A stretch of DNA of 64,000 nt from an uncultured Chloroflexia bacterium (GTDB lineage Bacteria; Chloroflexota; Limnocylindria; Limnocylindrales; CSP1-4). The notes below the pieces were generated by a model. That model did no database searches, was not told the DNA's origin, and was given only the letters and a program-made list of their open reading frames with translations. Of this stretch, positions 1 through 17,587 are shown piece by piece. Both the position numbers and the translations under genes were made by a program. The stretch is taken from assembly GCA_963713975.1 (NCBI GenBank), contig OY970218.1, forward strand, positions 3,168,001 to 3,232,000, given 5' to 3'. The stretch's first letter is position 1. Each line of letters begins with the position of its first letter.

Positions 1-21
1 CTTCTTCGTGCGGGGGGGCAT
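1..21 (-). CDS. rpsR: 30S ribosomal protein S18, N-terminal fragment (runs off window)
   Basis: ATG-MPPRTKK on the minus strand after an AGGAG SD (31-35), directly downstream of ssb in the conserved rpsF-ssb-rpsR order. Confidence 0.65.
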
Positions 22-85
22 GAGCGGTGTCTCCTGGTGGTGGCGGGCTTGCCGCCGGAGCGGCCCTCAGGCCGCGGGACAATCG

Positions 86-547
86 TCAGAACGGGAGGTC
101 GTCGAGGTCGTCGGGCGCGGGCGCCGATGGTCGCGTGGGCCGCACGGACTCGCCGCCTCCGCCACCGCCGCTGCCGCCCGACGGGGCTCCGAACGAGCCC
201 TCCTCGTCGCGGACCCGGGCATCGAGGCTGATCACGTTGTCGGCGGTGATCTCCAGGGACGTCCGCTTCTGGCCGTCCCGGGCCTCGTACTCGCGGGTGC
301 GGAAGCGGCCCTCGACGAAGACCTTGTTCCCCTTGCGGAACTGCTCCGCGGTCCGCTCTGCGCGATCACCCCAGACCGTCACGCGGAACCAGTCGGTCTG
401 GTCGTCCTGCCACTCGCCTGACTGCGGGTCACGGCTGCGGTGGCTGACCGCGACCGAGAACTCGGTCACGGGACGCCCGTTGGGGGTGTACCGCATCTCG
501 GGGTCACGTCCGAGGTTGCCGATGATCATGACCTTCGCGAATGCCAT
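86..547 (-). CDS. ssb: single-stranded DNA-binding protein
   Basis: MAFAKVMIIGNLGRDPEMRYTPNG OB fold, acidic tail DDLPF, GAGGAG SD. Confidence 0.97.
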   Translation of the reverse strand: MAFAKVMIIGNLGRDPEMRYTPNGRPVTEFSVAVSHRSRDPQSGEWQDDQTDWFRVTVWGDRAERTAEQFRKGNKVFVEGRFRTREYEARDGQKRTSLEITADNVISLDARVRDEEGSFGAPSGGSGGGGGGESVRPTRPSAPAPDDLDDLPF

Positions 548-560
548 CGCCGGCTCCTCT

Positions 561-995
561 TCAGTCGATGGCCGCGGGCGCGGCCTCGCTCTCGGATTCG
601 TCGATCTGCTCGCCGTCATCCTCGGCATCGTCCTCATCGGCGGACGGGAGCTCGGCGTCGATGTCGTCGGCGTCCTCGGCGGCGGCCGCGTCGCGGCGGG
701 CCTTGACCGGCCGGATGGCGCGGGTCACGAGGTAGCGGAGCACGTCCTCCGTGATCTGGAGGCTCCGCTCCATCTCCGCGATGACCTCGGCCGGGGCTTC
801 GAAGACCACGATGTGGTACGAGCCATCCCGGTAGCGGTCAATGGGATACGCGAGGCGGCGACGCCCCCAGGGCGCGACCTTGACGATCTGGCCACCCGAG
901 GCGACGACATAGCGCGTGGTGCGGTCGATGACCGCGGCGGCCCGCTCATCCGGCGCATCCGGCTTGAGAACGAGCATGAGTTCATAGCGGCGCAC
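561..995 (-). CDS. rpsF: 30S ribosomal protein S6
   Basis: RRYELMLVLKPD...WGRRRLAYPI...EDVLRYLV; GTG start after AAGGAG. Confidence 0.96.
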   Translation of the reverse strand: MRRYELMLVLKPDAPDERAAAVIDRTTRYVVASGGQIVKVAPWGRRRLAYPIDRYRDGSYHIVVFEAPAEVIAEMERSLQITEDVLRYLVTRAIRPVKARRDAAAAEDADDIDAELPSADEDDAEDDGEQIDESESEAAPAAID

Positions 996-1006
996 GGCCT
1001 GCTTGT

Positions 1007-1078
1007 CTCCTTCCAATGGGTATCTGCCCCGCTGACGGCATGCCGGCACGGGACCGAAAGGACCGCGGGAGGATAGCA
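1007..1078 (-). promoter_or_regulatory. rpsF promoter (extended -10 TGcTATCCT) and candidate S6:S18 autoregulatory leader
   Basis: -10 at 1075-1070; leader UCCUUUC can pair with GGAAGGA over the SD, with CCCG a few nt from the helix. Confidence 0.5.
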
Positions 1079-1176
1079 CGGGCCGCCACGGCACCGATCT
1101 GCGAGTGTCCGCAGGGTGCCGTATCCTCTCGCCGTCACCATCGCCCGCGGTGACGAAAGTATTGCTGGGGGAACGC

Positions 1177-2373
1177 GTGCAGCTCTCGATCCTGCTCTTG
1201 GCCACCGACCGCAAGTCCGTGCAGTCGCTGGCCACTGCACTGACCGTACCCGGCCACGGCGTCACCGTCGTCACCCGGCCGGACGAGGCCGTGGCCGCGG
1301 CCGCCGGCTACAGCCTGGTCCTGATCGACCGGGTGACCCCGCCTGCGACGGTCGCGGATGTCGTGACGATGCTGGGCGCCGACCCGAAGACGGCCGGGAT
1401 CCCGGTGCTTGCCGTCGCCCAGACCGGCGAACTGGACGAGCGCATCGCGCTCCTGGAAGCCGGTGCCGACGACGTCATCGCCCGGCCGTTCGACCAGCCG
1501 GAGCTGGAGGCGCGGATCGAGGCCCTGGCCCTCACGACCCAGCGCGGCGGCGCCGGCGCGGGCGGTGGCATCGGCGACATCCAGGGTCACCGGCTCGTGA
1601 CCGTGTTCAGCCCCAAGGGCGGCGTCGGCACGACGACGGTCGCCACCAACCTCGCCGTCATCGCGGCCGAGACGCAGCCCAACAAGGTCCTCCTCGTGGA
1701 CCTCGACCTGTCCTTCGGGCAGGTGGCCTCACACCTCAACCTGCAGCCGAAGCAGACCCTGCTGGAGCTGGCACGCGACGAGGGTGCCCTGCACGAGACG
1801 GACCTCTTCCGAACCTACGCGATCCACCATGCCAGCGGTGTCCACGTCCTCGCGTCGCCTCCTTCCCCCACCTTCACCGCCCTGATCAGCACCGAGCAGA
1901 TCGAGCTGATGCTCGCGCGGGCCATCGAGGCCTACGACGTGATCGTGGTCGATGCCGGCACCGCGCTGGACCCCAGGCTCACGTCCTTGTTCTCGCTCTC
2001 GTACTCGGTCGTGGTACCCGTGCTGCCCGAGATCCCCGCGCTCAACTCCGTGCACGTGCTGCTGGAGCAGCTGACCGAGAACGGATCCCTTGGTGTGCAA
2101 ACCGTGTTCGTGCTCAACAACGCGTTCGCACGAGACCTGCTCAAGCGCAGCGACGTGGAGACCGTCCTGGGCTCGAAGATCTCGGCCGAGCTCCCGTACG
2201 ACCCGATCGTCTATCTCAAGGCCGTGAACGAGGGCAACCCGGTGGTCCGCAGCGCCCCGAAGTCGCCGCCGGCCGAGAAGTTGCGTGCCCTGGCCACGCT
2301 CGTGCTCGGACGCACGATCGCCCCCAGGACGGACGAGGGCAAGAAGGAGAAGCGGGGGCTCTTCGGCCGCTGA
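1177..2373 (+). CDS. cpaE: receiver domain + CpaE/TadZ (MinD-like) pilus assembly ATPase
   Basis: N-terminal REC-like domain (LVLID...EAGADDVIARPF), deviant Walker A SPKGGVGTTT, LVDLDLSFG, C-terminal KRGLFGR; GTG start inferred. Confidence 0.8.
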   Translation: MQLSILLLATDRKSVQSLATALTVPGHGVTVVTRPDEAVAAAAGYSLVLIDRVTPPATVADVVTMLGADPKTAGIPVLAVAQTGELDERIALLEAGADDVIARPFDQPELEARIEALALTTQRGGAGAGGGIGDIQGHRLVTVFSPKGGVGTTTVATNLAVIAAETQPNKVLLVDLDLSFGQVASHLNLQPKQTLLELARDEGALHETDLFRTYAIHHASGVHVLASPPSPTFTALISTEQIELMLARAIEAYDVIVVDAGTALDPRLTSLFSLSYSVVVPVLPEIPALNSVHVLLEQLTENGSLGVQTVFVLNNAFARDLLKRSDVETVLGSKISAELPYDPIVYLKAVNEGNPVVRSAPKSPPAEKLRALATLVLGRTIAPRTDEGKKEKRGLFGR

Positions 2374-2436
2374 CCCGAGGGACCGCGGCGGCGAGCATCC
2401 GGAACGCCCGCACCGCGGGCAGCCCGCTCCGGGCGC

Positions 2437-2523
2437 TGGTGCCGAGGGCGAGGTTCGAACTCGCACGGGGTTGCCCCCAGCGGTGTTTAAGACCGCAGCG
2501 TCTGCCGGTTCCGCCACCTCGGC
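2437..2523 (-). tRNA. tRNA-Leu(TAA)
   Basis: cloverleaf with long variable arm, anticodon loop CT-TAA-AC, GTTCGAAC, encoded CCA. Confidence 0.93.
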
Positions 2524-2578
2524 ATGTCCGACCGTGCGGACGCAGCCATCCTACCCGCGTGCCCGGCCACCCGCCCGG

Positions 2579-4033
2579 CTATCCCCTTGCGCCGGGGCGT
2601 CGCGCCGTCAGGCGGGCGGCGCTCCAGCGGCATCCGCACAGGACCTTCGGGCAGGCGGGATGCGGCAGCATGGTGGCCTTCAGCTCCTCGCTGATCCGCA
2701 CGACGAGTCCACGATCCGCGCGGCACGTTTCGCAGCAGGAACCGGCCACAAGCACGGCCTCCCGGCCGGTCACGCGCAAGCCCTTGAGGTCCGCGATCGC
2801 TGCCTCACGCTCGAGGTCCCGGATCTCGTCAGGAGCAGGCGCGTCCGGGTCGGCGGCCTTGAGCAGGGACCGGGCCTGCGTCCGCCTGATCGAAGCCGCG
2901 TCTGCCCAACGGTGGTCCCGCTTCGCCGCCGCATAGGCGCGATTCGCGGTCTGCACGTAGAGGGCGCATGCCGCAGCGATCCCCTCCTCCGACGGGAGCG
3001 CGGAGGCGAGCCTGTGGACGCTGGCCGTGGACGCCCCCGTGGTCGTCGCCAGGACCAGCCAGCGGTCCCGCGGGCGGGCGAGTCGGGTGAGCTCCTTCAC
3101 ACGACGCTGCGCAGCCACCAGGGTGGCCGCCGCCGTCTCCGTGAGGTAGAGGACGCCGCCGTCGAGTCGCTTGACGACGATGCGCTCACGGCAGTTGCCG
3201 CAGCGGCGGCTCGAGGTGGGCCGGGGCTCGAGCAGGACGGCGCAGGACGGACAGGCTGCGAGCACGAGCGGCTGTCGACGTCGCCGAGGGGCCGCCTTCG
3301 GGAGAACGACCTGGCGCGCCGGTGGCACGGTGCGCGGCGGGCGAGGTGGGATGACCGACTTGCCGGACTTGGCCGCCGCCTGGGACCTGGTGTCACGCTT
3401 CTTCGCGCGGGGCACGGTTGGCTTCGGATGGGCACCGTTCAGATCGGCGTCAGCTTCGGCGACCGGCTCGAGCGTCGCAACCGGCTCGATCACGTCAGCT
3501 TTGGCGACAGGCTCTGGCGTCACGACAGGCTCTGGCGTCACGACCGGATCTGGCGTCACGACCGGATCTGGCGTCACCGCCTCGGGGGCTGGGGCGGGAA
3601 GCGCGACCGGCTCGGGCGTCACGACTGGCGTGGGCGTCACGACCGGCTCGCGGCGGTCCAGGTCCCAGTCGTCCGCGACCACCACGATCGACGGTACATG
3701 GGAGGCCCGGTGTCGAGCTCCGGCCGCCGCGACGACGTCATCGGCCATCACCGGGATCCCCGGCGACTCAAAGATCGGGACGCTCGCGGCCTCCGGCGCG
3801 GGATCCCCGGGGGCTTCTTCGAGCGGCTCCGGGTCGGCGGCCACCGCGTCATCGCGGGCGATGTCACCCGGGTCGAGACCCTCCCGCTGGAGGAGCAGGC
3901 GCTCCAGGCGCGCGGCGCTGCCCTGGCGGGCCAGCTCCAGCTCCAGCTGCTCTTCCTTGGATGATCGCTTGAGGATCCCGGGCACTCGTGCCACGCGCCG
4001 ACCCTCCTCCTTCGATGCGTCCCCGCTCGTCAT
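2579..4033 (-). CDS. hypothetical protein: Pro/acidic repeat region plus Cys-rich (zinc-binding-like) C-terminal half
   Basis: 484-aa ORF with VTP(D/E)PV repeats, CPSC...CGNC and CCETC...PHPAC...CGC. Confidence 0.7.
   Translation of the reverse strand: MTSGDASKEEGRRVARVPGILKRSSKEEQLELELARQGSAARLERLLLQREGLDPGDIARDDAVAADPEPLEEAPGDPAPEAASVPIFESPGIPVMADDVVAAAGARHRASHVPSIVVVADDWDLDRREPVVTPTPVVTPEPVALPAPAPEAVTPDPVVTPDPVVTPEPVVTPEPVAKADVIEPVATLEPVAEADADLNGAHPKPTVPRAKKRDTRSQAAAKSGKSVIPPRPPRTVPPARQVVLPKAAPRRRRQPLVLAACPSCAVLLEPRPTSSRRCGNCRERIVVKRLDGGVLYLTETAAATLVAAQRRVKELTRLARPRDRWLVLATTTGASTASVHRLASALPSEEGIAAACALYVQTANRAYAAAKRDHRWADAASIRRTQARSLLKAADPDAPAPDEIRDLEREAAIADLKGLRVTGREAVLVAGSCCETCRADRGLVVRISEELKATMLPHPACPKVLCGCRWSAARLTARRPGARG
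3518..3577. repeat. 18-bp coding tandem repeat (VTP(D/E)PV)
   Basis: cgtcacgac(a/c)gg(c/a)tctgg repeated about 3-4 times. Confidence 0.8.
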
Positions 4034-4211
4034 ACAGGTATTCGCGGCCGGACGTCAGTGCAGAGTAGTCGGGTAGGGTCGTCGAGCGCAATTGCCGCCC
4101 GTCAACAATGGCGCACTCAGGCACCATGCCGGGCATCAGCATCGCCGGCGGCGGCGCCGCGGGACGCCCGTGTTCACGCGGCCTGGCCCTGTCGCCTGCC
4201 TCGGTCTGCGG

Positions 4212-4502
4212 TCAGCTCCACGTGAACGGAAGCAGGTCCTGGCAGACCTCGTGGCTGACGCCCTCGGGGTCCGCGGCCCGGCCCGGCGGCGTCTCGAACT
4301 GCCGCAGGGCGTGCTCCTCGCGGGTCGCCGCACGACACCACCGCACCTTGATCACGTAATGGGCGTGATCCCGGTGCGGGACCTTCTCCAGCCCGGTTGG
4401 AAACTCCTGCTCGATCCTGCCAACGAGACCGTCGACGCCACGGAGGACGACGAGGCCGAACTCCTTCCACGTGCCATGGATGCAGCTTGCGACGGTTGTC
4501 AT
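4212..4502 (-). CDS. hypothetical protein (96 aa)
   Basis: GC-rich third codon positions, GAGGG SD before ATG at 4502. Confidence 0.55.
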   Translation of the reverse strand: MTTVASCIHGTWKEFGLVVLRGVDGLVGRIEQEFPTGLEKVPHRDHAHYVIKVRWCRAATREEHALRQFETPPGRAADPEGVSHEVCQDLLPFTWS

Positions 4503-5009
4503 GACCAGGTTCCCTCGTGCGCTGGACACTCGCGTGCCCTCGCGACCATCGTAGGCGCGTGCCGGACGTGGCGTGGGCCGGTTGCAGCGTGGCGGGTGCG
4601 CGGCCAGAGGCGATCGGGCGCGAGCCGCTCGCCGACGCTGAGCCGGAGGCAGAGATCGGAGCGGCGTGCGCGGAACCGGGGGCGCCAGCGGCGTCGCGAG
4701 GCGGGCGACGGCACAGGCGACCGGCTCGCGCTGGGCGAGCGTTCGGCAAGGTCCGTCGCTGGGTCACGCCGGTCCGTGTTCACTGGAGGGGTGCCAGCGG
4801 CGTGAGCGGACTCATCGCGACGCCGCGTGCGCCGCGGCCTCATCGCAGCAGCGCGTATCTGTAGGTCAGGCGCACCTTCGCGAACCGTCCGATGGCGTCC
4901 GTGGAGTCAGCGATCACGCACGAACCGGCCATCCGTTCGGGCCCGGTGACCGGCTTCGATCGCCTCTACTGCTGCCCGCGTTACTGCCCAACTCCACCGT
5001 CCGACGCCC

Positions 5010-5165
5010 CTATGGCGCTCCGATAAGGTCGGCCCAGAGCTGTCCGGCGGCGCTGGGCCCACCCGCCGACAGGAACACCCAGATCGCGCCGATGGCGACC
5101 ACAGCGACGACGAGCTCCACGACGTAGCTCCGTGTGCTTCGTCTTTGGCGCTGGCGTCGGCCCAC
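5010..5165 (-). CDS. small membrane protein (51 aa, not in ORF track)
   Basis: MGRRQRQRRSTRSYVVELVVAVVAIGAIWVFLSAGGPSAAGQLWADLIGAP; basic N-terminus plus one TM helix; GTG 6 nt after TAGCCT. Confidence 0.6.
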   Translation of the reverse strand: MGRRQRQRRSTRSYVVELVVAVVAIGAIWVFLSAGGPSAAGQLWADLIGAP

Positions 5166-5185
5166 ACGGACAGGCTAGCGCGCCG

Positions 5186-5221
5186 GTCATCCCGCCGTGA
5201 GCTGGTCCGCGTCGTTGAGAT
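5186..5221. repeat. intergenic repeat R1 (~36 bp)
   Basis: gtcatcccgccgtgagctggtccgcgtcgttgagat. Confidence 0.85.
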
Positions 5222-5223
5222 AC

Positions 5224-5778
5224 CTACTCGCAGGCGAACGGGACGTCTGCAAGGAACGCTTCCAACGCAGCAGTCGTCTCCGTGAGCAGCGCGGTTGCCG
5301 TGACAAGACGCGTGGTGGCCCGCCCGATGAGATCGAAGTCCCTCGCGCTTGCTCCTTGCTCAAGGTCGGACGCAACAGCGCCCCAGGCAGACAGCATCTT
5401 TCGGTGGGTCGCAACAAGATCCGTCGCCGGTCCCCAGCGAGGCACGCCGTCCAGTGCCACTTCGATTGCGTCGACATCCGTCTTCAGGGCAAAGGCCGTA
5501 GTTGCGATGGAATCGAAGTCGGGCTCGTCCGCGCTGAGCGCGGCGCCGACCTTGCCGAAGTCCTCGGCGAAGGGGCCGGCCATCCCATTCAGCGCTTCGC
5601 ACAGCGGGGCCTGGAACCCCTCAGGCCAAGGCTCATCACTGGAACTCACCCCACCAGTCGGCCGCGGGGTGCCTGCGGTCGCAGATACCGTGGGTGGTGG
5701 AGACGCCGCTGGAGCCGCTGTCGAGCAGCCGACAATCAGTCCCACGATCAACAGGCAGAACATCAGGATTGCCCGCAT
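5224..5778 (-). CDS. putative lipoprotein
   Basis: signal peptide with lipobox IVGC, Ser/Pro/Thr linker, helical domain; GGAGGG SD. Confidence 0.75.
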   Translation of the reverse strand: MRAILMFCLLIVGLIVGCSTAAPAASPPPTVSATAGTPRPTGGVSSSDEPWPEGFQAPLCEALNGMAGPFAEDFGKVGAALSADEPDFDSIATTAFALKTDVDAIEVALDGVPRWGPATDLVATHRKMLSAWGAVASDLEQGASARDFDLIGRATTRLVTATALLTETTAALEAFLADVPFACE

Positions 5779-5825
5779 ACGCATTCCCTCCAGCTGGGAC
5801 GCACACTCAATCACAATGGCCGAGA

Positions 5826-5862
5826 GTCATCCCGCCGTGAGCTCGTCGGTGTCGCTCTGAGT
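5826..5862. repeat. intergenic repeat R2
   Basis: gtcatcccgccgtgagctcgtcggtgtcgctctgagt. Confidence 0.85.
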
Positions 5863-5865
5863 CAG

Positions 5866-6390
5866 CTAGCAGCTGCCCTTACGGGTGATCTTGGTGACGA
5901 GGAATGCGGGCACGGTCGTGTTGCCGCCGATCTGGGTGTCGTAGCTGTACGAGCCGAGGCCAACGACGTTCATCACCACGACATCGTCCTCGACAACGTC
6001 GATGAGGGCGCGCGGCTCACCCGTGAAGTACGCGTTCTCGCCCTGATACCAGTACTTGAGCTTCTTGAAGGAGGCATTGCCCAGGAACGAGTCGTCACCG
6101 GTCGCGGCATCGAACTGGGTGATGCACGCCCAAAGCTGGTAGCCCTTGCCGGTGTAGTCGTCGGGCGCCTTGACGATCTTCTTCCAGTTGCGCTCGGTCA
6201 CCTTCGCGTGCGACTTGGGCAGCGAAATCTCGGGTTCGGGGGTCGTCACCTCCTCGGTGGTCCCTCCGCCGCTGCCCGGGTCCGCCGTCGCGGGCGCCTG
6301 GTTGATCGCAGGTTGCTGTGTCGTCGTTGCTGCTCCCCCGCACGCGCTGACCACCACCAGCGCAACCAGGAGGCCAAGAAGCCGCATCAC
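5866..6390 (-). CDS. putative lipoprotein with possible OB-fold C-terminal domain
   Basis: lipobox VSAC, low-complexity linker, beta-rich domain (GKGYQLWACITQFDAATG...EDDVV). Confidence 0.8.
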   Translation of the reverse strand: MMRLLGLLVALVVVSACGGAATTTQQPAINQAPATADPGSGGGTTEEVTTPEPEISLPKSHAKVTERNWKKIVKAPDDYTGKGYQLWACITQFDAATGDDSFLGNASFKKLKYWYQGENAYFTGEPRALIDVVEDDVVVMNVVGLGSYSYDTQIGGNTTVPAFLVTKITRKGSC

Positions 6391-6455
6391 CGTCCCTCTC
6401 CCTTTGTTCCGTCAGGTTGGCCCGGGTCCGCTCTCCTCACCACGATAGTCCTCAG

Positions 6456-6491
6456 GTCGCCCCGCCGTGAGGTGGTCGGCGTAGCCGAGAT
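6456..6491. repeat. intergenic repeat R3
   Basis: gtcgccccgccgtgaggtggtcggcgtagccgagat. Confidence 0.8.
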
Positions 6492-6602
6492 CGCTCCGGC
6501 GGCGTGGAGCCGGGAGCGTTGCGCCGTGACCGGTTTCCCTCACACGGGAGTGAGCCAAGCGCTAGGCTCGGCTAGACGGAGCAACCAACGAGGGTGCAAC
6601 TC

Positions 6603-8006
6603 ATGGCGGTCGCGAAGCCAGCTCCAAGGTCTGCCGCGAAAGTGCCACCCAAGCCAGAGGAATTGTGGCAACCCGCGAGGCTCATTCCGACCACTGGGAT
6701 CGGTGGTCAGGACGAGCAGGAGCAACGGGCTACCTCCTCGCTCCTCGCCGTGATCAAGGCTGTACCCCAGTTCGGGCGGGCGATCACGGCGCATCTGGGC
6801 GCACCGGCCGGTCGGATCGAGACCTACACGGAGGTCCGTTTCCAGGACGCCGACAACAAGACGGTGATCCCCGACGGGGCGATCGTGGTGGAGCGCGGGA
6901 AGACGCGTTGGGTCTGTCTCGTCGAGGTGAAGACCGGCGGCGCACCGCTCCAGGCCGGGCAGATCGAGCGGTACCTCGACATCGCGAAGGTCCACGGGTT
7001 CGACGCCCTGCTCACGATCAGCAACCAGATCGCCTCGTCGCCGACGGAAAGCCCGGTAGCGGTCGATGCCCGCAAACTGAAGCGCGTGTCGCTCTATCAC
7101 ATCTCGTGGTGGCGAGTGATGACCATCGCTCGGGTATGGCACCAGCATCGAGGCATCGCTGACACGGACCAGGCATGGATCCTCGGCGAGCTCATCGCCT
7201 ACCTCGACCACGAGCGCGCTGGCGCCGGCGGCTTCGAGGATATGGGAGCGTCCTGGGTCGCCGTTCGCGACGGTGCGCGCCAACTGACCCTGCGAGCACC
7301 CGACAAGGACGTCCGAGACGTGGCCTCGCGCTGGGAGCAATTCGTCCAGTACCTCGCCTTGGGCCTGTGTCAGGACCTCGGCCGGGACGTCGATCCCGTC
7401 TGGCCTCGCAACCTCGACGTTGGTGCTCGCCGGGATCTGATCGTGAGAAACCTTGTCGAGAGCGGTCGGCTGGAGGCAACCGTTCGGGTCCCGGATGCAG
7501 CTGCGCCAATCGACCTTGCGGCCGACCTCCGCACGCGCTTGTTCACGACGAGCGTCGAGTTGGCCGCACCCCGAGATGGACGACCGAGGACCCGAGTCTC
7601 GTGGCTCCTCCGGCAGCTCCGCGACACCAACGACGCGCTTCGGATCGACGCCCGGTACCCGAATGTCAAGGAATCGGTCACGGTGATGCTGAAGGATGCC
7701 CGGGAACAGCCGGACCGGCTCCTCTACGCTCAGGATCCGAAGCGGGAGCCACGAGCGTTCCGGGTTTCGCTGTCCCGCGAGCTCGGTACGAAGCGCGGCA
7801 AGAATCAGGGCAGCTTCGTAAACGAGAGCAAGAAGCAGGCGCTCGATTTCTACCGGGAGGTCGTCCAGGGGCTCCGTGCTTGGAGCCCCAGCGCTCCTCG
7901 CTTGCCAGAGCAGAGTGCGGACAGCTCACCCCTAGCGTCTCCCGACCCGCCTAGCTTTGGCGACGGCGAGCGCGACTTCGGCGAGGCTACGCAGCCCGAG
8001 GGCTGA
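6603..8006 (+). CDS. PD-(D/E)XK-fold nuclease-like protein
   Basis: IPDGAIVV...CLVEVKTG motif, upstream EQE..ATSSLLAV helix; GAGGG SD. Confidence 0.7.
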   Translation: MAVAKPAPRSAAKVPPKPEELWQPARLIPTTGIGGQDEQEQRATSSLLAVIKAVPQFGRAITAHLGAPAGRIETYTEVRFQDADNKTVIPDGAIVVERGKTRWVCLVEVKTGGAPLQAGQIERYLDIAKVHGFDALLTISNQIASSPTESPVAVDARKLKRVSLYHISWWRVMTIARVWHQHRGIADTDQAWILGELIAYLDHERAGAGGFEDMGASWVAVRDGARQLTLRAPDKDVRDVASRWEQFVQYLALGLCQDLGRDVDPVWPRNLDVGARRDLIVRNLVESGRLEATVRVPDAAAPIDLAADLRTRLFTTSVELAAPRDGRPRTRVSWLLRQLRDTNDALRIDARYPNVKESVTVMLKDAREQPDRLLYAQDPKREPRAFRVSLSRELGTKRGKNQGSFVNESKKQALDFYREVVQGLRAWSPSAPRLPEQSADSSPLASPDPPSFGDGERDFGEATQPEG

Positions 8007-8036
8007 AGCACGGTGCACCAAGCCCGATAGACCGCC

Positions 8037-8073
8037 AGGCGCCCCCCCCGGCCGCCCCCCGGTCGGGGGGCCT
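8037..8073 (+). terminator. GC-rich hairpin, probable terminator
   Basis: C-run/G-run inverted repeat 30 nt after the stop codon. Confidence 0.45.
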
Positions 8074-8249
8074 CACCGATGACGGAGGTAGATGGTGCCA
8101 CCCGCCAGGCTGGCCGACGCAGCCGAGTTCAGCTCGCCAGGATGTGGAGCCATTGATCGCAGCACCTCGACTCGGACAACACCGCGCCCGAGTACCCGGA
8201 ATTCCCTTCCGGCCTATGCGCGGCCGATGCGGCCCGTGGATGGAAGTCA

Positions 8250-8283
8250 GAAGCCCCCGGCCGTATTGGCCGAGGGCTTCTTT
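8250..8283. terminator. hairpin downstream of the tRNA cluster
   Basis: gaagccc-ccggcc-gtatt-ggccg-agggcttc followed by ttt. Confidence 0.6.
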
Positions 8284-8292
8284 GCGCTCAGT

Positions 8293-8369
8293 TGGAGGCG
8301 ACGATCGGATTCGAACCGATGAATAGAGGTTTTGCAGACCTCCGTGTTGAGCCACTTCACCACGTCGCC
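8293..8369 (-). tRNA. tRNA-Cys(GCA)
   Basis: cloverleaf, loop CT-GCA-AA, CCA end. Confidence 0.95.
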
Positions 8370-8409
8370 CCGTGGCGCCGGTCCATTCGCCGGCGGGCGG
8401 TTGTCAGAT

Positions 8410-8483
8410 TGGCTGCCCCTCGAGGATTCGAACCTCGGCTAACGGATCCAAAGTCCGCTGTCCTACCACTAGACGAAGGGGCA
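8410..8483 (-). tRNA. tRNA-Gln(TTG)
   Basis: cloverleaf, loop CT-TTG-GA, CCA end. Confidence 0.95.
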
Positions 8484-8518
8484 GCGGGACCGGGTCTGGT
8501 GCTCGATATGGGGAGGAA

Positions 8519-8594
8519 TGGAGCGGAAGACGGGGTTCGAACCCGCGACCTCAACCTTGGCAAGGTTGCGCTCTACCAACTGAGCCACTTCCGC
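8519..8594 (-). tRNA. tRNA-Gly(GCC)
   Basis: cloverleaf, loop TT-GCC-AA, CCA end. Confidence 0.96.
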
Positions 8595-8613
8595 TCGATG
8601 ACCGACCAGGTGA

Positions 8614-8689
8614 TGGTGCCGAGAGCCAGATTCGAACTGGCGACACCGCGATTTTCAGTCGCGTGCTCTACCAACTGAGCTATCTCGGC
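8614..8689 (-). tRNA. tRNA-Phe(GAA)
   Basis: cloverleaf, loop CT-GAA-AA, CCA end; upstream TGcTATTCT -10. Confidence 0.96.
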
Positions 8690-8760
8690 CCGTTCCCGGG
8701 TCCCCGTGGGGCCCCGTCGGCGCGCCGGAGAATAGCACGGGACCCGAACGGGGGGCAACC

Positions 8761-9789
8761 TCAGCGACCCGGCGGAGGCGGCGGTCCGGGGGCGCGCGAC
8801 AGCGCTGCCTGGGCCCCCGGATCCAGCACCATGGCCGGGTCCGTAACCGGGGGCTGGCCGCTGAGCGCCCGCAGGCGGTTGATCCGGTCGAGCGCCGGCG
8901 GATGGGTCGAGAACAGCGCGCGGGACGACCCGGTGGCCGCCTTGATGGGGTTCTCGAAGTAGAGGTGCTGCGTGGCGCGGTTGGCCACCTCGAGAGGCTC
9001 CGTGTCCAGCGCGATCTTGGCCAGGGCCCGCTCCAGCCCGTACGGGTTCCGGGTGAGCTCCACGCCCGACGCGTCGGCGAGGTACTCGCGCTGCCGGCTG
9101 ACCGCCATCTGCACCAGGCGCGCCATGATCGGTGCCAGGATGGCCAGGGCGAGGGCGAGCAGCATGATCACCACCTGCACTCCCCCACCCCCGGAGTCCG
9201 ACGACCCGCGGCGGCTGCGGCGGCCCATGCCGCCGAACATCGAGAAGCGCAGGAAGAAGTCCGCCAGGAGCGCGATCGAGCCGACCAGCACGCCCACCAT
9301 CAGCGAGAAGCGGATGTCGAAGTTCCGCACATGCGAGAGCTCGTGGGCGAGGACACCCTGTAGCTCCTCGCGGTCCAGCTTCTGCAGCAGCCCGATCGTC
9401 ATCGCCACCGACGCGTGCTTGGGATCCCGGCCCGTGGCGAACGCGTTGGGCGCCGTATCGTCGATGAGGTAGACCTTGGGCATCGGCACGTTGGCCGCCA
9501 GGGCCATCTCCTGGACCACGTTGACCAGCTGCGGCTGGTCCGCGGCCGTGACCTCGCGCGCCCCGGAGGTCCTGAGCACGAGCGCATCGCCGCCGAAGTA
9601 CGAGAACAGGGCTGCCCCAAAACCGACAGCGATCGCGATCGCCATCGAGGGCAGGGCGGCCCGTGGGTCGCCCGTGACTGCCCAGCCGATCAGCAGGCCG
9701 AGCAGCCCGAGGAGGACCACGACCACCAGGGCCAACAGCACGGAGTTCCGCTTGTTGGCCCCGATCTGGGAGTAGAAGGTTGCCGCCAT
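8761..9789 (-). CDS. htpX: M48 zinc metalloprotease HtpX
   Basis: PNAFATG, HELSH (HExxH), REYLAD, FSTHP, TM helices. Confidence 0.93.
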   Translation of the reverse strand: MAATFYSQIGANKRNSVLLALVVVVLLGLLGLLIGWAVTGDPRAALPSMAIAIAVGFGAALFSYFGGDALVLRTSGAREVTAADQPQLVNVVQEMALAANVPMPKVYLIDDTAPNAFATGRDPKHASVAMTIGLLQKLDREELQGVLAHELSHVRNFDIRFSLMVGVLVGSIALLADFFLRFSMFGGMGRRSRRGSSDSGGGGVQVVIMLLALALAILAPIMARLVQMAVSRQREYLADASGVELTRNPYGLERALAKIALDTEPLEVANRATQHLYFENPIKAATGSSRALFSTHPPALDRINRLRALSGQPPVTDPAMVLDPGAQAALSRAPGPPPPPGR

Positions 9790-9822
9790 GTCGCGTCAGG
9801 CAGGGCCGATGTGCGACCCGCC

Positions 9823-10386
9823 TCAGTTCAGCGTGAGATCCACGTTCGGGACCTGGCTGGCCTCCGGCTCAGCATCGAAGAACTCGCGCTTCGTGAAGCC
9901 CAGCGGGCCCGCGATGATCACGCTCGGGATGGTCTGGATCGTGTTGTTGTAGTCCAGCACGGTGGCGTTGTAGTGCTGGCGGGAGAAGCTGATCTGGTTC
10001 TCGGTCGTCGTGAGCTCCTCCTGGAGCTGCATGACGTTCTGGTTGGCCTTGAGATCCGGGTAGTTCTCCACCACCGCGAACAGCGAGCGCAGCGCGCCGG
10101 TCAACATGTTCTCGGCGGCAGCCTGGCCGGCGGGACCCTGCGCCCCGGCCGCGACCGCGTTGGCACGCGCCTCGGTGACCCGGGTCAGGACGTCCTGCTC
10201 GAACCCCATGTAGCCCTTCACGGCCTGGACGAGGTTCGGGATCAGGTCGTGCCGGCGCTTCAGCTGGACCTCGATCTGGCCCAGCGCCTCGTCGATCCGG
10301 TTGCGCCGGGTGACGAGCCCGTTATAGATCCCTACGAGGATCACGACGATGACGACAATGATCCCGACGATGATCAGCAGTTCCAT
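9823..10386 (-). CDS. lemA: LemA family protein
   Basis: N-terminal TM, YNGLV, QLKRRHDLIPNLV, ENYPDLKANQN; GAGGAGG SD. Confidence 0.95.
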   Translation of the reverse strand: MELLIIVGIIVVIVVILVGIYNGLVTRRNRIDEALGQIEVQLKRRHDLIPNLVQAVKGYMGFEQDVLTRVTEARANAVAAGAQGPAGQAAAENMLTGALRSLFAVVENYPDLKANQNVMQLQEELTTTENQISFSRQHYNATVLDYNNTIQTIPSVIIAGPLGFTKREFFDAEPEASQVPNVDLTLN

Positions 10387-10510
10387 GCGGCCTCCTCGAG
10401 TGCACGGGCGCACGCCCCGAGCGACCAGCATAGCGCGGCGGTCAGGCAGGTCGCACCTGATCGGCGGCCGCAGCGACGCGGGGCGTGCGCGGGATTGGCG
10501 CGCCCGGAGG

Positions 10511-11826
10511 TGTCTGAGTTCACGACATAGGTGACACCTGATAGGGCACACATGAGTCGGGACATGCGTGACAGTCCGCCGCATGTCGAAGCACCGCGTG
10601 TCCGTCCTCAAGGTCGTCTCTGGGCAGCTGTCCGTCACCGCCGCCGCAGCGGAGTGCCACCTCTCCCGGGGCCATCTACAGCGGCTCCTCGCCAGGTACC
10701 GGGAGGCCGGCCTCGACGGCCTGGAGCCCCGGTCCCGTCGGCCGCGGACGAGCCCCCATGCGGTGCCCGACGGCGTCCGTGCCCGGATCACCGCGCTGCG
10801 GACGGAGCTTGCCGGGCGGGGTCTCGACGCCGGTCCTGCCACCATCGCCTGGCACCTGGAGCGCGAGGGCCTGACGGTGCCCTCGACCTCCACGATCCGC
10901 CGGGTCCTCCACGCCGCGGGCCTCGTCGTGCCCGAGCCGCACAAGCGGCCCCGGAGCTCCTGGATCCGCTTCGAGGCGGCCGCGCCCAACGGGGTCTGGC
11001 AGGCGGACTTCACCCACTGGCGGCTCGCCGACGGGAGCGGGGTCGAGATCGCGAGCTGGCTCGACGACCACTCCCGCTTCCTGCTCGGGTGCACGGTGTT
11101 CCGCCGGGTCAGCGGCGACGACGTGGTCGCGACCTTCACCGCCGCCGGCGACGAGCACGGCTGGCCCGCCGCCACGCTCACCGACAACGGGACCGTGTAC
11201 ACCGCCCGGCTGGTCGGAGGTCGCAACGGCCTCGAGCACCTGCTCGCGTACCTCGGCATCCGCCAGAAGAACGGGGCTCCTGGCCACCCCCAGACCCAGG
11301 GGAAGGTCGAGCGCTTCCACCAGACCCTCAAGCGCTGGCTGGCACGGCAGCCACGCGCGCGGACCCTCGCGGCGCTCCAGGCCCAGCTCGACGCCTTCCG
11401 CGACGTCTACAACGAGCAGCGGCCCCACCGGGCGATCGGCCGGCGGACACCCGGCGAGGCGTACCGGGCGATCCCGAAGGACCGGCCATCGGCCCCCGCC
11501 GGCCGCGGCCACTTCCGCCTGCGCTACGACACCACCGATGCCAAGGGTGCCATGACCCTGCGCCGGGCAGGGCGCCTTCACCACCTCAAGGTCGGCCAGG
11601 CCCACGCCCGCACCAAGGTGCTCGCGATCGTGGACGAGCAGGCGGTCACGGTCGTCGCCCTCCACACGGGCGAGATCCTGTCGGCCCATCGCATCGAGCC
11701 CGACAAGGGCTACTGGCGCAACACGCGGAGAGACCCCGGCCGATGGCCGGGGTCTCAGGCGACCGGGTGACTCCATGTGTCGCATATGTCGCGACTCATG
11801 TGTCGCACATGTCGCGACTCATGACA
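10511..11826 (+). mobile_element. IS481-family insertion sequence
   Basis: TGT...ACA termini, repeated subterminal motifs (catgagtcg(c/g)gacat), single DDE transposase. Confidence 0.88.
10568..11770 (+). CDS. IS481-family transposase
   Basis: N-terminal HTH, WQADFT, LDDHSR, LTDNG, PQTQGKVERFHQTLK, YNEQRPH; start may be ATG 10583. Confidence 0.93.
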   Translation: MTVRRMSKHRVSVLKVVSGQLSVTAAAAECHLSRGHLQRLLARYREAGLDGLEPRSRRPRTSPHAVPDGVRARITALRTELAGRGLDAGPATIAWHLEREGLTVPSTSTIRRVLHAAGLVVPEPHKRPRSSWIRFEAAAPNGVWQADFTHWRLADGSGVEIASWLDDHSRFLLGCTVFRRVSGDDVVATFTAAGDEHGWPAATLTDNGTVYTARLVGGRNGLEHLLAYLGIRQKNGAPGHPQTQGKVERFHQTLKRWLARQPRARTLAALQAQLDAFRDVYNEQRPHRAIGRRTPGEAYRAIPKDRPSAPAGRGHFRLRYDTTDAKGAMTLRRAGRLHHLKVGQAHARTKVLAIVDEQAVTVVALHTGEILSAHRIEPDKGYWRNTRRDPGRWPGSQATG

Positions 11827-11827
11827 T

Positions 11828-11904
<77 letters not shown>

Positions 11905-11977
11905 GGAGGCCGCCGCTTGACGGTGCCGAAAACACGAGCGGGCGGCCGTCGGGCCGCCCGCTTGAGGGTCAGGAGAG

Positions 11978-12062
11978 TGGTGCCCAGGCCGGGACTTGAA
12001 CCCGGATGAGTTGCCTCATACGCCCCTCAAACGTACGCGTATACCAATTCCGCCACCTGGGC
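11978..12062 (-). tRNA. tRNA-Leu(GAG)
   Basis: long variable arm, loop TT-GAG-GG, CCA end. Confidence 0.94.
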
Positions 12063-12104
12063 AAGAGCACCGGCGCCTGCGTCGGAGATCCCGGGACGGG
12101 GACC

Positions 12105-12190
12105 TGGTACCGAGGGAGGGAGTCGAACCCACACGACCTTGCGGCCACTGGTACCTGAAACCAGCGCGTCTACCATTCCGCCACCTCGGC
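12105..12190 (-). tRNA. tRNA-Leu(CAG)
   Basis: long variable arm, loop TT-CAG-GT, CCA end. Confidence 0.93.
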
Positions 12191-12217
12191 CCGACCCAAA
12201 ACGGCTCACCCGAAGGA

Positions 12218-13948
12218 TCACCGGTCTGCGGCGAGGCGCCATGCTAGCACATCCCAATACCGGTCGCCGGGGTCCGCGATGAGGCGCGGTGTGACCCCTT
12301 CGAGGCCCCTGGCGAGCATCACATCGTCGTTCCAGGCGAGCGGCAGCATGGGCCGACGCTCGGCCAGGGCGGCGAGCAGGGCCTTCCACGCGGCGGTGCG
12401 CTCCTCGTCCGTGCCGGGCTTCCTGGCCGCCTCCAGCAGCGGGTCGAGCTCCGTGTCCTGGTACCCGGCCAGATTCGTCCCGGACGCCTGCACCTGCGAC
12501 GACGCGAGCAGCGGATACAGGTCCGGCTCCAGGCCCTCGGCGATGTCCACCACGGCCGCCGTGAACTCCCCGGCGCGCAGCCGGGCGGCAAGGTCGCTCG
12601 CCTTGACCTCGACCAGGACCGCGTCGAACCCGAGGTCTTGCCAGGCATCACGCACGGCACCGGCAACGGCCGACAGCCGCGGGTTGGCGGACGCGGGAAC
12701 GCTCAGGATCTCCATCTGGTAGGGGTTGTTGGCGCCTGGGGCGACCCACCCGCCGCTCTTCTTCGTCCAGCCGGCGTTCTGGAGGGCCTTGGTCGCTGCC
12801 TTCTGGTCGTACTTGACGGACACCGCGGAGGCCTCGTCGTAGGCCCATGACCACGGAGGCACCATTGAGTCCGCGCGTGTGGCGTTGCCACCGAGGACGT
12901 CTGCGACCAGGGCGTCCCGATCGATGGACGCGAGGAGCGCCGTTCGCACCTTCGGGTCCCGCAGCTCCTTGTGGTTCGGTCGCAGGTTCAGCATGACCGA
13001 TGACAGCGTCGTGGTCTGGTATCGGTTGGTGTCAAATCCGTCGACGGTCGCGAGATCGGCGAGGACCGGGGAGGACAGGCCCGCCGCCGCATCGATCTCA
13101 CCGCCTCGCAGGGCGTCGGCCACCGCGGTCTCGTCGGCGTAGAACCGGAGCTCCATCTCGTCCAGGTAGGGCGCCGGCAGGCCGATGCCGACGGACGGAA
13201 GCGGCGTCGCCAGGGAATCCGACGGGGGCAGCCCATCGGCTGACGCCGGCGCCTCCTCCACCTGCGGGACCACGCCCGAGGCCGGCACCAGGATCGCGCG
13301 CTCATCGTTGATGTCCGCGAGGGCGAAGGGGCCACTGCCCACCGGCAGCCGCGCGAACTCGCTGGTCGCGATGTCCGCAAACGGCATGTCCCCGAGCAGG
13401 TGAGCGGGCAGCAGCGGCTGGGCGGCGAGCGCCAGGACGCCACCAATCGGGCTGCCCAGCCTCAGCTGGACCGTGGAGTCGTCGAGGGCGAGCGCGGTGA
13501 CGTCGGCCCACGCTCCCGCGGTGGATCCCCCGGTGTCCGGGCTCTTGCGGGCATTCACCGTGAACACCACGTCCCCGGCGGTGACGGGCTCGCCGTCATG
13601 CCAGACGGCGCCCTCCCGGAGCTTGAAAGTCCAGGTGCTCCCCTCCGCGTCGCTGGACCACGAGGTGGCCAGGTCCGGCTGGTAGGAGGCCCCCGGCCCG
13701 AGGCGGACCAGGCCCGAGAACACGAGGCCCACGAGCGAGCGCTCGGCACGGCTGCGCGCCGTCACCGGCGTGATGGATTCGGCCGTGCCAACGACTCCCT
13801 CGCGGTAGACCGCCGGGGGCGGCGGCGTGATCTCGGGTGTCGCGTTGGGCTCCGGATCATCGACCGCACGCGGCAGCGCGAGGGCGCCGGCGATGACGAC
13901 GAGGACAAGGGCCAGGACGGCGACGACGGCGCGGTCGCGACGGTTCAT
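12218..13948 (-). CDS. peptide/nickel ABC transporter substrate-binding protein (family 5)
   Basis: N-terminal TM anchor, PDLATSW, WHDGEPVTAGDVVFT, VGSGPF. Confidence 0.9.
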   Translation of the reverse strand: MNRRDRAVVAVLALVLVVIAGALALPRAVDDPEPNATPEITPPPPAVYREGVVGTAESITPVTARSRAERSLVGLVFSGLVRLGPGASYQPDLATSWSSDAEGSTWTFKLREGAVWHDGEPVTAGDVVFTVNARKSPDTGGSTAGAWADVTALALDDSTVQLRLGSPIGGVLALAAQPLLPAHLLGDMPFADIATSEFARLPVGSGPFALADINDERAILVPASGVVPQVEEAPASADGLPPSDSLATPLPSVGIGLPAPYLDEMELRFYADETAVADALRGGEIDAAAGLSSPVLADLATVDGFDTNRYQTTTLSSVMLNLRPNHKELRDPKVRTALLASIDRDALVADVLGGNATRADSMVPPWSWAYDEASAVSVKYDQKAATKALQNAGWTKKSGGWVAPGANNPYQMEILSVPASANPRLSAVAGAVRDAWQDLGFDAVLVEVKASDLAARLRAGEFTAAVVDIAEGLEPDLYPLLASSQVQASGTNLAGYQDTELDPLLEAARKPGTDEERTAAWKALLAALAERRPMLPLAWNDDVMLARGLEGVTPRLIADPGDRYWDVLAWRLAADR

Positions 13949-13991
13949 GTCTGCGGGACCAGGACTGGCGGCTTGGCGGGTGGGACTGCGT

Positions 13992-14213
13992 TCAGCCGCC
14001 GAGGACGAAGGCCACCAGCGCGAACAGCACGAACAGGACCAGCAGGACCACAGTGAACTGCCAGAGCCGGCGCTCGACACCACGGCGGCTGCGGTACACG
14101 GCGGAGTCGCCGCCGAAGGTGCCGGACAGGCCGGTCCCGCGCGCCTGGAGCAGGATGGCGGCGATCAGCGCGACGCTGAGCAGAAGCTGGCCGATGGCCA
14201 GGATCGGGTTCAC
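13992..14213 (-). CDS. secG: preprotein translocase subunit SecG
   Basis: ILLQARGTGLSGTFGG...RRGVER, two TMs; GGAGGT SD. Confidence 0.93.
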   Translation of the reverse strand: MNPILAIGQLLLSVALIAAILLQARGTGLSGTFGGDSAVYRSRRGVERRLWQFTVVLLVLFVLFALVAFVLGG

Positions 14214-16660: not shown

Positions 16661-17587
16661 TCATGCCAGAGGCGGGCGTGCGGTTCCCCGTCCGACCGGC
16701 CCCCTCCGAGCCGCTGTCCGGCCCGGGACGCGACGGCCGTGCGACACCCCGCCCGCGGCGCCGGATGGCCGGGTGCGCGACCGCAGGCCCGCGCCGTCGT
16801 CGTCGTGGAGCGCGAGCAGCTCCAGCCTGTCCAGGGCCCGCTGGACGGTCGAGCGATGCAGCTCGAGGCGCTCGGCGATCTCGGACAGCGATGCCTCCGG
16901 CGTCTCTCGACGGGCCTCCGCAACCGCCCGGACGGTGCGCGGCTGCTCACCGAGGCGGCCGTCGGCCTCGAGGGCCTCGATGGCCTCGAGGTGGCGACCG
17001 GCGGCAGCAACCGAGCGGTGCAGGTTGGCGCTCTCGGCGTTGAGCACCCGGTTGAGGTCACCTCGCAGCGTGCGGGCCACGCCCCGTGCCTCGAGCTCCA
17101 GCAGGGCAGCGCTGCCCCCGATCATGCCCAGGAACGCCTCGATGGACTCCGTGCTCTTCCAAGTGACGACACCCATGCCCCGCCGCAACCGCCACGCGGC
17201 GGGCAGGCCGATGTCGTCGAGCCGAAGGGCTAGACGCGGAGCCTCCGCGGCCGGCACGACGAACTCCAGGTGGGCACGACCGGACGAGATGCTGAGCGAG
17301 CCACGGGCCAGGAAGCGGCCCCGCAACCACGCCACGCGGCAGTGATCGGGGGCGGCCTGCCAGTCAAGGTCCGTGGGTGGCAGGAGGAACCGCCGGCGCG
17401 CTGCTCCCCCACCCTCGCGGGCGTGGCCGCCGAGGCGGATGACCAGGCGCGCCACGGCGGGCTCGCGCGCATGCACCTGGGGACCGAGCCCGGCGATCTC
17501 CGCGCGCCGATCACACGGTCGCGACGGATCGATCGCCGCGAGCTCCGCCCGCAGGGCCGCAACGAGGTCCCGGTCGCTGGCCGACAT
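16661..17587 (-). CDS. whiA: DNA-binding protein WhiA
   Basis: LRGRFLARGS, HLEF, NRVLNAESANL, C-terminal HTH; follows rapZ-yvcK. Confidence 0.88.
   Translation of the reverse strand: MSASDRDLVAALRAELAAIDPSRPCDRRAEIAGLGPQVHAREPAVARLVIRLGGHAREGGGAARRRFLLPPTDLDWQAAPDHCRVAWLRGRFLARGSLSISSGRAHLEFVVPAAEAPRLALRLDDIGLPAAWRLRRGMGVVTWKSTESIEAFLGMIGGSAALLELEARGVARTLRGDLNRVLNAESANLHRSVAAAGRHLEAIEALEADGRLGEQPRTVRAVAEARRETPEASLSEIAERLELHRSTVQRALDRLELLALHDDDGAGLRSRTRPSGAAGGVSHGRRVPGRTAARRGPVGRGTARPPLA

Follow-up and report, generated by a model that had tools for sequence, protein, structure and literature searches.

A genus-restricted repeat element at the joints of an accessory gene array in an uncultured Limnocylindria bacterium

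In an uncultured Chloroflexia bacterium (class Limnocylindria, order Limnocylindrales, CSP1-4), two predicted lipoprotein genes and a small hydrophobic open reading frame (ORF) follow one another on the minus strand, each preceded by a copy of the same short repeat. They lie in a 64,000-nt stretch (the window; positions without a locus label are counted from its first letter) of contig OY970218.1, the single 3.62-Mb contig of a genome with 70.8% G+C (assembly GCA_963713975.1). A reading made from the letters alone (the sequence-only reading) had offered two explanations for the repeat: a promoter-carrying recombination site that builds arrays of interchangeable surface-protein cassettes, or an operator/promoter shared under one regulator. 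Here we report that the three repeats are copies of a genus-restricted element, E, which is about 74–90 nt long, GC-rich and paired as an imperfect hairpin. Based on where E sits in relatives and where homology between them breaks off, we tentatively interpret it as a recombination junction that may bound envelope-gene cassettes.

Three repeats in an accessory gene array

The repeats, called R3, R2 and R1 in the direction of transcription (Table 1), share an invariant 11-nt core, CTCACGGCGGG on the minus strand, between arms that have diverged by about 30–40%. Three exact cores occur in the window against 0.21 expected, and none of 100 shuffles reached three; tolerating one mismatch gives 7 sites, no more than chance would produce (7.7 expected), so the signal lies in the exact, clustered core triplet. 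A repeat search returned a single family with three 51-nt copies at 5171–5221, 5811–5861 and 6441–6491, which are 640 and 630 nt apart and have 63% and 75% identity to the reference copy. Genome-wide, the exact core occurs 13 times and flanks are common only to the three in the window. A 39-nt matrix run over the whole genome scored the window sites at 53.5, 50.4 and 48.7 bits and the next best site at 19.0 bits, which, with the core counts, confirms the three repeats of the sequence-only reading as real and unique in this genome.

The copies differ in completeness. R3 is full length: the covariance model of E described below aligns to it over model positions 1–75 (72.9 bits, E-value 1.7e-13), and it aligns over its whole length with copies from eight loci of relatives. 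R2 begins 3 nt past the stop codon of the 173-aa gene (TAG 5868–5866); because the full-length model misses it in the window search and its 5′ side is taken up by the conserved C-terminal codons of that upstream gene, R2 is a 3′-half copy. R1 begins 2 nt past the stop codon of the 184-aa gene (TAG 5226–5224), and its weak 5′ half reaches back over the stop and the final codons of that gene; the model scores 5176–5255 at 27.9 bits, with an E-value of 0.0024 for the loci searched and 0.04 genome-wide. The starts 2–3 nt past the preceding stops had been pointed out before, as had a -10-like hexamer 12–13 nt past each core, and both are read directly from the sequence. By eye, a weak -35-like CTCACG stands 17–18 nt before the hexamer in all three copies, while a consensus promoter/terminator scan of 4400–7000 returned 0 sites, including none of the three hexamers, and so the promoter half of the earlier proposal keeps its motifs without gaining a consensus match. 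A reading of the 36-nt repeats as leader structures was dropped, as folds from repeat to start codon were no better than those of shuffled sequences.

The genes between the repeats are accessory. The 173-aa and 184-aa proteins match each other in the signal peptide alone (BLASTP E-value 0.009) and are otherwise unrelated, as the sequence-only reading had held; its third gene, a 51-aa peptide, is an ORF of 36–51 aa whose reality is doubtful. Tandem duplication of whole units was considered and rejected, since the lipoproteins share only their signal peptides and the third unit resembles neither. The array proteins and the divergent 467-aa neighbour have no match in Pfam, NCBIfam, PHROGs or PADLOC, save a marginal PHROG for the 173-aa protein. 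Orthologues of the 173-aa gene were found in 5 of 40 relatives searched, at 51–57% identity, all in other contexts and none with the repeat; a further homologue lies between an RNase P RNA gene and a copy of E (genome G081, locus L067). The 184-aa gene has only two distant homologues among 69 relatives, and region 4530–5230, with the third ORF, has no homologous DNA in any of the 69. The window array itself is conserved in no relative. The hydrophobic stretch of the third ORF (5010–5120) ends in …LSAGG, compared with …VSACGG in the signal peptide of the first gene, and judging from this the ORF may be what is left of a lipoprotein gene after the loss of its lipobox cysteine and body.

A structured element family confined to the genus

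The E family surfaced through a mismatch-tolerant scan of the genus followed by alignment with the window. A covariance model built from nine copies (75 positions, 16 pairs) found E in 29 of 70 genus genomes, with 1–9 copies each (E-value ≤ 0.01), and did not find it in any of 145 genomes representing 34 other genera of the class. In the window's own genome the genome-wide search returned one locus only, with one full and one weak copy. Two blocks are conserved: a central TCGATC between short inverted GCCGG/CCGGC arms, and a 3′ core, CGGCGGGGCGACC, of which CTCACGGCGGG is the window form. The centre resembles a tRNA T-arm, with GCCGG, a 7-nt loop containing TCGATC, CCGGC and a CCA a few bases on. 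Pairing consists of an outer stem of 7–10 bp, an inner stem and a small apical helix. Across 38 copies, 91.8% of cells are paired and 9 of 16 pairs are doubly changed, values that none of 500 shuffles matched, as counted on a model-fitted alignment of related copies; one pair reads CG in 12 copies, UA in 11 and UG in 7. The inner region varies in length (74 vs 90 nt for the element), and E is much better kept between species than its flanks.

No Rfam family matched the repeats in window positions 1–14000 (E-value ≤ 1) or E in relatives (8 loci at E-value ≤ 0.1 and 17 loci at the gathering score), and ARAGORN called no E copy a tRNA. A motif with 18 specified bases, searched in one genome per species, gave 30 single matches where roughly 30 are expected; these were set aside as chance, being in coding sequence with dissimilar flanks. 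Viral contigs had 0 motif matches, and metagenome contigs had 0 for the window-type motif and 1 for the family-type motif (L093); E is rarely sampled in metagenome contigs. Titles and abstract openings of the literature on Limnocylindria and on the c-di-GMP-II-GAG riboswitch mention no such element.

In relatives, E forms same-strand arrays with copies 0.6–2 kb apart (G014, G057, G017, G081, G001, G041 and G078), in which one to three genes lie between copies and which are located in accessory islands. A stable-RNA gene stands upstream on the same strand at 6 of 26 loci: tRNA-Asn, tRNA-Leu, tRNA-Pro, RNase P RNA twice and the tRNA cluster of the window, which the sequence-only reading had correctly placed beside the array. 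Accessory genes adjoin E, most of them for secreted proteins or lipoproteins (TPR, META, CHRD, PD40 and SnoaL-like domains, and many unknowns). Of 38 copies, 28 have a co-oriented gene downstream and 23 have one upstream, by crude gene calls based on G+C at third codon positions (GC3). Some copies stand between divergent genes (R3) or between convergent ones (L053:2395 in G081, abutting the end of msrA). A pure promoter does not account for every placement, nor does a pure terminator; a boundary suits the placement of E better than either.

Sequence features that bear on transcription cluster around some copies. Seven are followed, about 27–48 nt downstream, by a riboswitch of the c-di-GMP-II-GAG/GCG type, none of which occurs in window positions 1–14000; variant aptamers of this type precede many lipoprotein and secreted-protein genes of the genus. 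Upstream of roughly 13–15 of 32 copies, in an alignment read by eye, runs a motif of TAAG, 7 nt, TAAG, 10 nt, a -10-like hexamer (A2, T6) and 5–7 nt before E, of which R3 has a degenerate version only. The motif looks like an activator-dependent promoter or paired protein-binding sites, and with this geometry E would be the 5′ end of the transcript. Pairs of extracytoplasmic function (ECF) sigma and anti-sigma factors recur in the islands.

A second family shares these islands. Family G (about 90 aa) occurs in 14 of 70 genomes, with as many as 21 copies and numerous fragments. E is present in 11 of these 14, and G lies nearly always on the strand opposite E. It has no Pfam, NCBIfam, PHROGs or PADLOC match and is absent from the window's own genome. 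The 3′ end of G resembles the reverse complement of E, and in variant E copies of G081 the canonical 3′ core is joined to a stretch that reads as the final ~17 codons of G in reverse complement. G is often found at the end of ECF sigma/anti-sigma operons.

Homology breakpoints, mobile elements and competing explanations

Homology between loci of relatives breaks off within E in three cases. Two loci of G072 share a stretch of 1168 nt at 92% identity that stops 46 nt into E, while the 3′ part of E and the downstream flank of one of them match a third locus instead. A module with a 132-aa gene, 91% identical between G072 and G014, ends on the left in E at the core and on the right just past the stop codon, where a degenerate half copy follows in G072. 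A riboswitch-plus-gene module, 72% identical between G016 and G057, likewise has its left end at the core and its right end ~15–20 nt past the stop codon, followed by a degenerate core. Among pairs of E copies with detectable flank homology, none has both flanks in common; an upstream flank is shared at length by one pair and over 50 nt by another, and sharing of downstream flanks is confined to the seven riboswitch-bearing copies. Separately, a 2.1-kb block (L077:6145–8287 against G014:C1, L081:6627–8771) is 97.4% identical between two species, between adjoining blocks that are 72–92% identical or unrelated, with a fragment of a G gene at one edge. In L081 the block spans a 434-aa ORF that resembles the anti-sigma-like ORFs after ECF sigma genes at other places in the same locus; identity this high, judged by sequence comparison, points to a recent exchange of whole modules.

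E is also associated with mobile elements. Seven genomes have a large serine recombinase and an E copy 2–20 kb apart on one contig; these E copies belong mostly to the longer subtype. At the four loci inspected, E stands at the cargo-distal edge of a unit that runs from integrase through primase/helicase (AAA_25, Prim-Pol, DUF3631) to cargo, 5–11 kb from the integrase. In two of the four units, the integrase gene and a tRNA gene on the opposite strand overlap at their 3′ ends (Table 1). A search of these loci for direct repeats of 16 nt or more gave none, and the window repeat matches none of the 51 tRNA 3′ ends of its own genome. Most genus genomes have only two generic tyrosine recombinases, and 37 of 70 have a serine recombinase (PF00239).

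On this evidence, which is circumstantial, the reading that fits the comparative data best is that of E as a recombination junction bounding envelope-gene cassettes, whose 3′ arm may carry a promoter; we hold it plausible but somewhat short of probable. E would bound small accessory modules, mostly of lipoprotein or secreted-protein genes, in islands next to stable-RNA genes and the edges of mobile elements. Each module would comprise core, 3′ arm, leader, gene and stop codon, and modules would insert one after another at the core of a resident full E, giving a full R3 nearest the tRNA genes, then a gene, a half copy, a second gene and a partial copy. The same scheme would produce copies that begin 2–3 nt past stop codons and have identical cores but diverged arms, a pattern that may recall the common core of attachment sites, whether recombination at the core were site-specific or driven by homology. 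The 3′ arm would travel with its gene and, with the -10-like hexamer, would be the probable promoter of that gene. A narrower version strikes us as unlikely: that E is the site of an undescribed, integron-independent cassette system, with site-specific recombination at the core of the T-arm-like hairpin by an enzyme acting in trans (Xer-type or the integrase of an E-bearing element) and with single envelope genes inserted successively, each with its own promoter-bearing half site.

A number of results weigh against a recombination junction, above all the search for an enzyme. Neither a tyrosine nor a serine recombinase is encoded among the 43 window ORFs scanned (10 + 33) or the 128 ORFs (66 + 62) at 25 E loci of relatives. 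For the ORFs scanned, the sequence-only reading was right that the window holds no such recombinase, although it overlooked an IS481-type DDE transposase (Table 1), and its cassette proposal, which agrees with E at gene joints and breakpoints and with an unconserved array, gains no linked recombinase. The integron integrase model TIGR02249 had no match above its 265-bit cut-off in the 70 genomes (best score 96.8 bits). Serine recombinases as the general enzyme were rejected, their presence being uncorrelated with E (15 of 29 genomes with E and 22 of 41 without); G081, with nine copies of E, has none. In the four integrase-bearing units E is not a copy of an integrase-gene end or a target tRNA end (tRNA-Arg in L098, tRNA-Pro in L099), to which it shows no similarity, and the far junction of the integrase-bearing units was not located. 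The breakpoint cases number only three, and a single pair of closely related species accounts for two of them; the same mosaics would be expected from homologous recombination between E copies. In six relatives, orthologues of the 173-aa gene lack a core-like site on either side, and with a single E locus in the window's own genome, any activity there may be long past. To these are added the relatedness of the copies behind the covariation count, the crude gene calls behind the orientation counts, and hairpin energies of full copies that are not clearly beyond those of shuffles (z from -2.0 to +1.5).

Part of the data can be explained without recombination. If E or its 3′ half were a promoter, operator or 5′ leader for accessory envelope genes, read by a regulator or sigma factor encoded elsewhere, and recombination were incidental, one would expect the common layout of the window copies, in which CTCACG, 17–18 nt and a hexamer with A2 and T6 are followed 34–54 nt later by a ribosome-binding site and start codon. 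An invariant core amid diverged flanks, the predominance of co-oriented next genes (many for lipoproteins), the TAAG motif, the recurrent ECF pairs and the excess of G·U pairs over A·C mismatches on the E strand (24 to 12) point the same way, and a riboswitch just after E means that transcription must start in or before E in those seven copies. We nonetheless consider this explanation possible but rather unlikely, given the empty consensus promoter scan, a core-to-hexamer distance that varies across the family, orthologues of the first array gene that lack the site, and 10 of 38 copies that face a convergent gene or nothing, as at msrA. A patchy, island-bound spread over 29 of 70 genomes is, moreover, unlike that of a host regulatory site, and because the window's own genome has no other site there is no regulon there, which weakens the shared operator of the sequence-only reading.

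Two further explanations concern E as a hairpin only and E as a relic. The covariation that backs the stems, a fold retained while the inner length changes, and the T-arm-like centre would suit a folded RNA or DNA hairpin acting without recombination, whether as a terminator or insulator lacking a U-tract, a REP-like mRNA-stabilizing 3′ hairpin, or a small tRNA-like RNA gene on mobile elements. So would a start of E between -8 and 170 nt past the upstream stop in most of the 23 co-oriented cases, and a promoter-like motif that ends 5–7 nt before some copies. Yet R2, and largely R1, lack the 5′ arm and so are unable to fold into the hairpin of the family; the genes on either side of R3 diverge, which leaves nothing to terminate; no copy has a U-tract or is called a tRNA; folding is no better than in shuffles, from repeat to start codon or for full copies; and Y1/RAYT transposases (PF01797) are absent from all 70 genomes while matching in 6 of 14 control genomes, which, with 1–9 copies per genome, is unlike REPs. 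We regard a hairpin without recombination as unlikely. That the window copies are inert, either decayed fragments related to the 3′ end of G or the outcome of an old local duplication, we consider very unlikely. The G081 variants, the possibility (by eye) of laying the canonical E along the same stretch of G, the co-occurrence and opposite orientation of the two families, and a source genome that has no G and a single E locus would be in keeping with it, but the model of E does not see intact G 3′ ends at E-value ≤ 1, so the homology between them is weak. The invariant core amid diverged arms speaks for constraint or recent exchange, E is far better kept between species than its flanks, and tandem duplication leaves three unrelated genes between the copies unexplained.

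The remaining neighbours of the array are context. The sequence-only reading had called the divergent 467-aa gene nuclease-like; family matches are lacking, and what remains is a weak PD-(D/E)xK lead (PDDEXK_4). As a candidate recombinase it was rejected: no recombinase domain was found in family scans, the gene occurs in 6 of 70 genomes, E is missing from the only two relatives that have it in full length (G015 and G019), and no other array contains it. Further along, a long minus-strand ORF at 9823–11331 is an artefact over the IS481-type transposase, the real LemA gene being at about 9823–10410. The 105-aa gene stands isolated in the variable region that separates tRNA-Leu(taa) from the tRNA-Cys cluster and has ~79% DNA identity to copies in six genus genomes with no shared neighbours.

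Table 1 Features of the window and of loci in relatives (locus labels L) referred to in the text
Feature	Locus	Position	Strand	Remarks
tRNA-Phe, Gly, Gln, Cys cluster	Window	8293–8689	-	ARAGORN and Rfam; upstream of the array, same strand
467-aa accessory protein	Window	6603–8006	+	Divergent from the array; context, outside the element system
R3	Window	6446–6519	-	Full-length copy of E; includes repeat 6456–6491 and core 6461–6471
-10-like hexamer TATCGT	Window	6442–6447	-	13 nt past R3 core; 54 nt before ATG at 6387
173/174-aa predicted lipoprotein	Window	5866–6390	-	First putative cassette gene; lipobox VVVSAC, GC3 0.87
R2	Window	5811–5862	-	3′-half copy: core 5831–5841 and 3′ arm
-10-like hexamer CATTGT	Window	5813–5818	-	12 nt past R2 core; 34 nt before ATG at 5778
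184-aa predicted lipoprotein	Window	5224–5778	-	Second putative cassette gene; lipobox LIVGC, weaker GC3 signal
R1	Window	5171–5255	-	Diverged copy of E; core 5191–5201
-10-like hexamer TAGCCT	Window	5172–5177	-	13 nt past R1 core; 51 nt before GTG at 5120
36–51-aa hydrophobic ORF	Window	5010–5165	-	Likely start GTG 5120; reality doubtful
105-aa gene	Window	4212–4529	-	Strong coding signal, without family match
IS481-type DDE transposase	Window	10568–11770	+	HTH, rve, rve_3; between LemA gene and tRNA-Val
Integrase gene with tRNA-Arg	L098	6748–8271 with 6760–6836		Overlapping 3′ ends
Integrase gene with tRNA-Pro	L099	15861–17411 with 17393–17469		Overlapping 3′ ends
Riboswitch aptamers	L053	3512–3595, 6843–6927, 10588–10672
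Riboswitch aptamer	L057	873–957
Riboswitch aptamer	L062	6384–6467
Riboswitch aptamer	L064	2624–2709
Riboswitch aptamer	L066	2730–2811
Riboswitch aptamer	L068	3432–3516
Riboswitch aptamer	L077	3069–3153
Riboswitch aptamer	L078	2438–2522
E copy with TAAG motif upstream	L053	3636
E copy with TAAG motif upstream	L061	3083
E copies with TAAG motif upstream	L062	2752, 6509
E copy with TAAG motif upstream	L063	4559
E copies with TAAG motif upstream	L054, L055, L056, L069, L070, L073, L074
Family G gene	L053	16545–16817	+
Family G gene	L063	5334–5597	-
Family G genes	L061–L083			Many copies

Comparison with known systems

Among dispersed repeats, REP sequences and their mosaic clusters (BIMEs) and promoter-carrying miniature inverted-repeat transposable elements (MITEs) such as the Correia elements of Neisseria resemble E as imperfectly palindromic intergenic repeats at gene boundaries that can supply promoters or terminators and serve as substrates for recombination. 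E differs from REP/BIME in the lack of Y1/RAYT in the 70 genomes and in being clustered in islands at 1–9 copies rather than dispersed in tens to hundreds. Its outer stem of 7–10 bp could pass as the terminal inverted repeats of a MITE; by eye, no target-site duplication was noticed, and no parent element was identified.

With tRNA attachment sites E shares the adjoining tRNA or RNase P RNA gene, co-oriented repeats, an identical core between diverged arms and a T-arm-like centre, and with serine-integrase elements the position at the edge of an integrase-bearing unit in the four genomes inspected. In contrast to such sites, it matches neither the 51 tRNA 3′ ends tested nor integrase-gene ends, and the intervals between copies hold one gene rather than a whole integrative element; E arrays follow the stable-RNA gene in the same orientation, whereas the integrase units have the opposite geometry. 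The pdif modules of Acinetobacter plasmids, which are moved by XerC/D, offer another parallel, with small modules, short conserved sites, no dedicated recombinase adjacent to them and, in nearly every genome of the genus studied here, two generic tyrosine recombinases. E sites are, however, co-oriented rather than alternating, have no sequence or experimental link to Xer, and appear unlike the AT-rich dif consensus.

The closest parallel in layout is to integrons. Both have co-oriented arrays of single, unrelated genes, often for secreted proteins or proteins of unknown function, and in both an imperfect-hairpin site follows straight after each stop codon, as in the window and similarly in G057, G078, G081 and G014. 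In both, the structure of the site is kept better than parts of its sequence, the first site differs from later ones, and gene content varies among relatives. The systems differ in that none of the 70 genomes encodes IntI, and none was found beside any E array. The sequence-only reading had called the repeat not attC-like, which holds for the missing integron integrase, seems to hold for the end boxes (R″/L″ and L′/R′ are not seen in E by eye) and does not hold for the overall form, since the full E is an imperfect hairpin that the 36-nt part does not reveal. Even as promoter or terminator punctuation, E would be a new, structured, genus-specific element absent from Rfam, and it accounts for the cassette-array look of the three window genes. 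If it is a true recombination site, the model of E would provide a sequence handle for finding variable surface-gene arrays in metagenomes, and E would represent a second, independent solution to the integron problem of stockpiling and shuffling single genes, in a phylum whose gene mobility is little known and for the envelope proteins that are most exposed to phages and the environment. The direction of travel would then set the two systems apart: integron cassettes, most of which lack a promoter, have attC at the 3′ end, whereas the core and 3′ arm of E seem to travel with the downstream gene and may bring a promoter with them.

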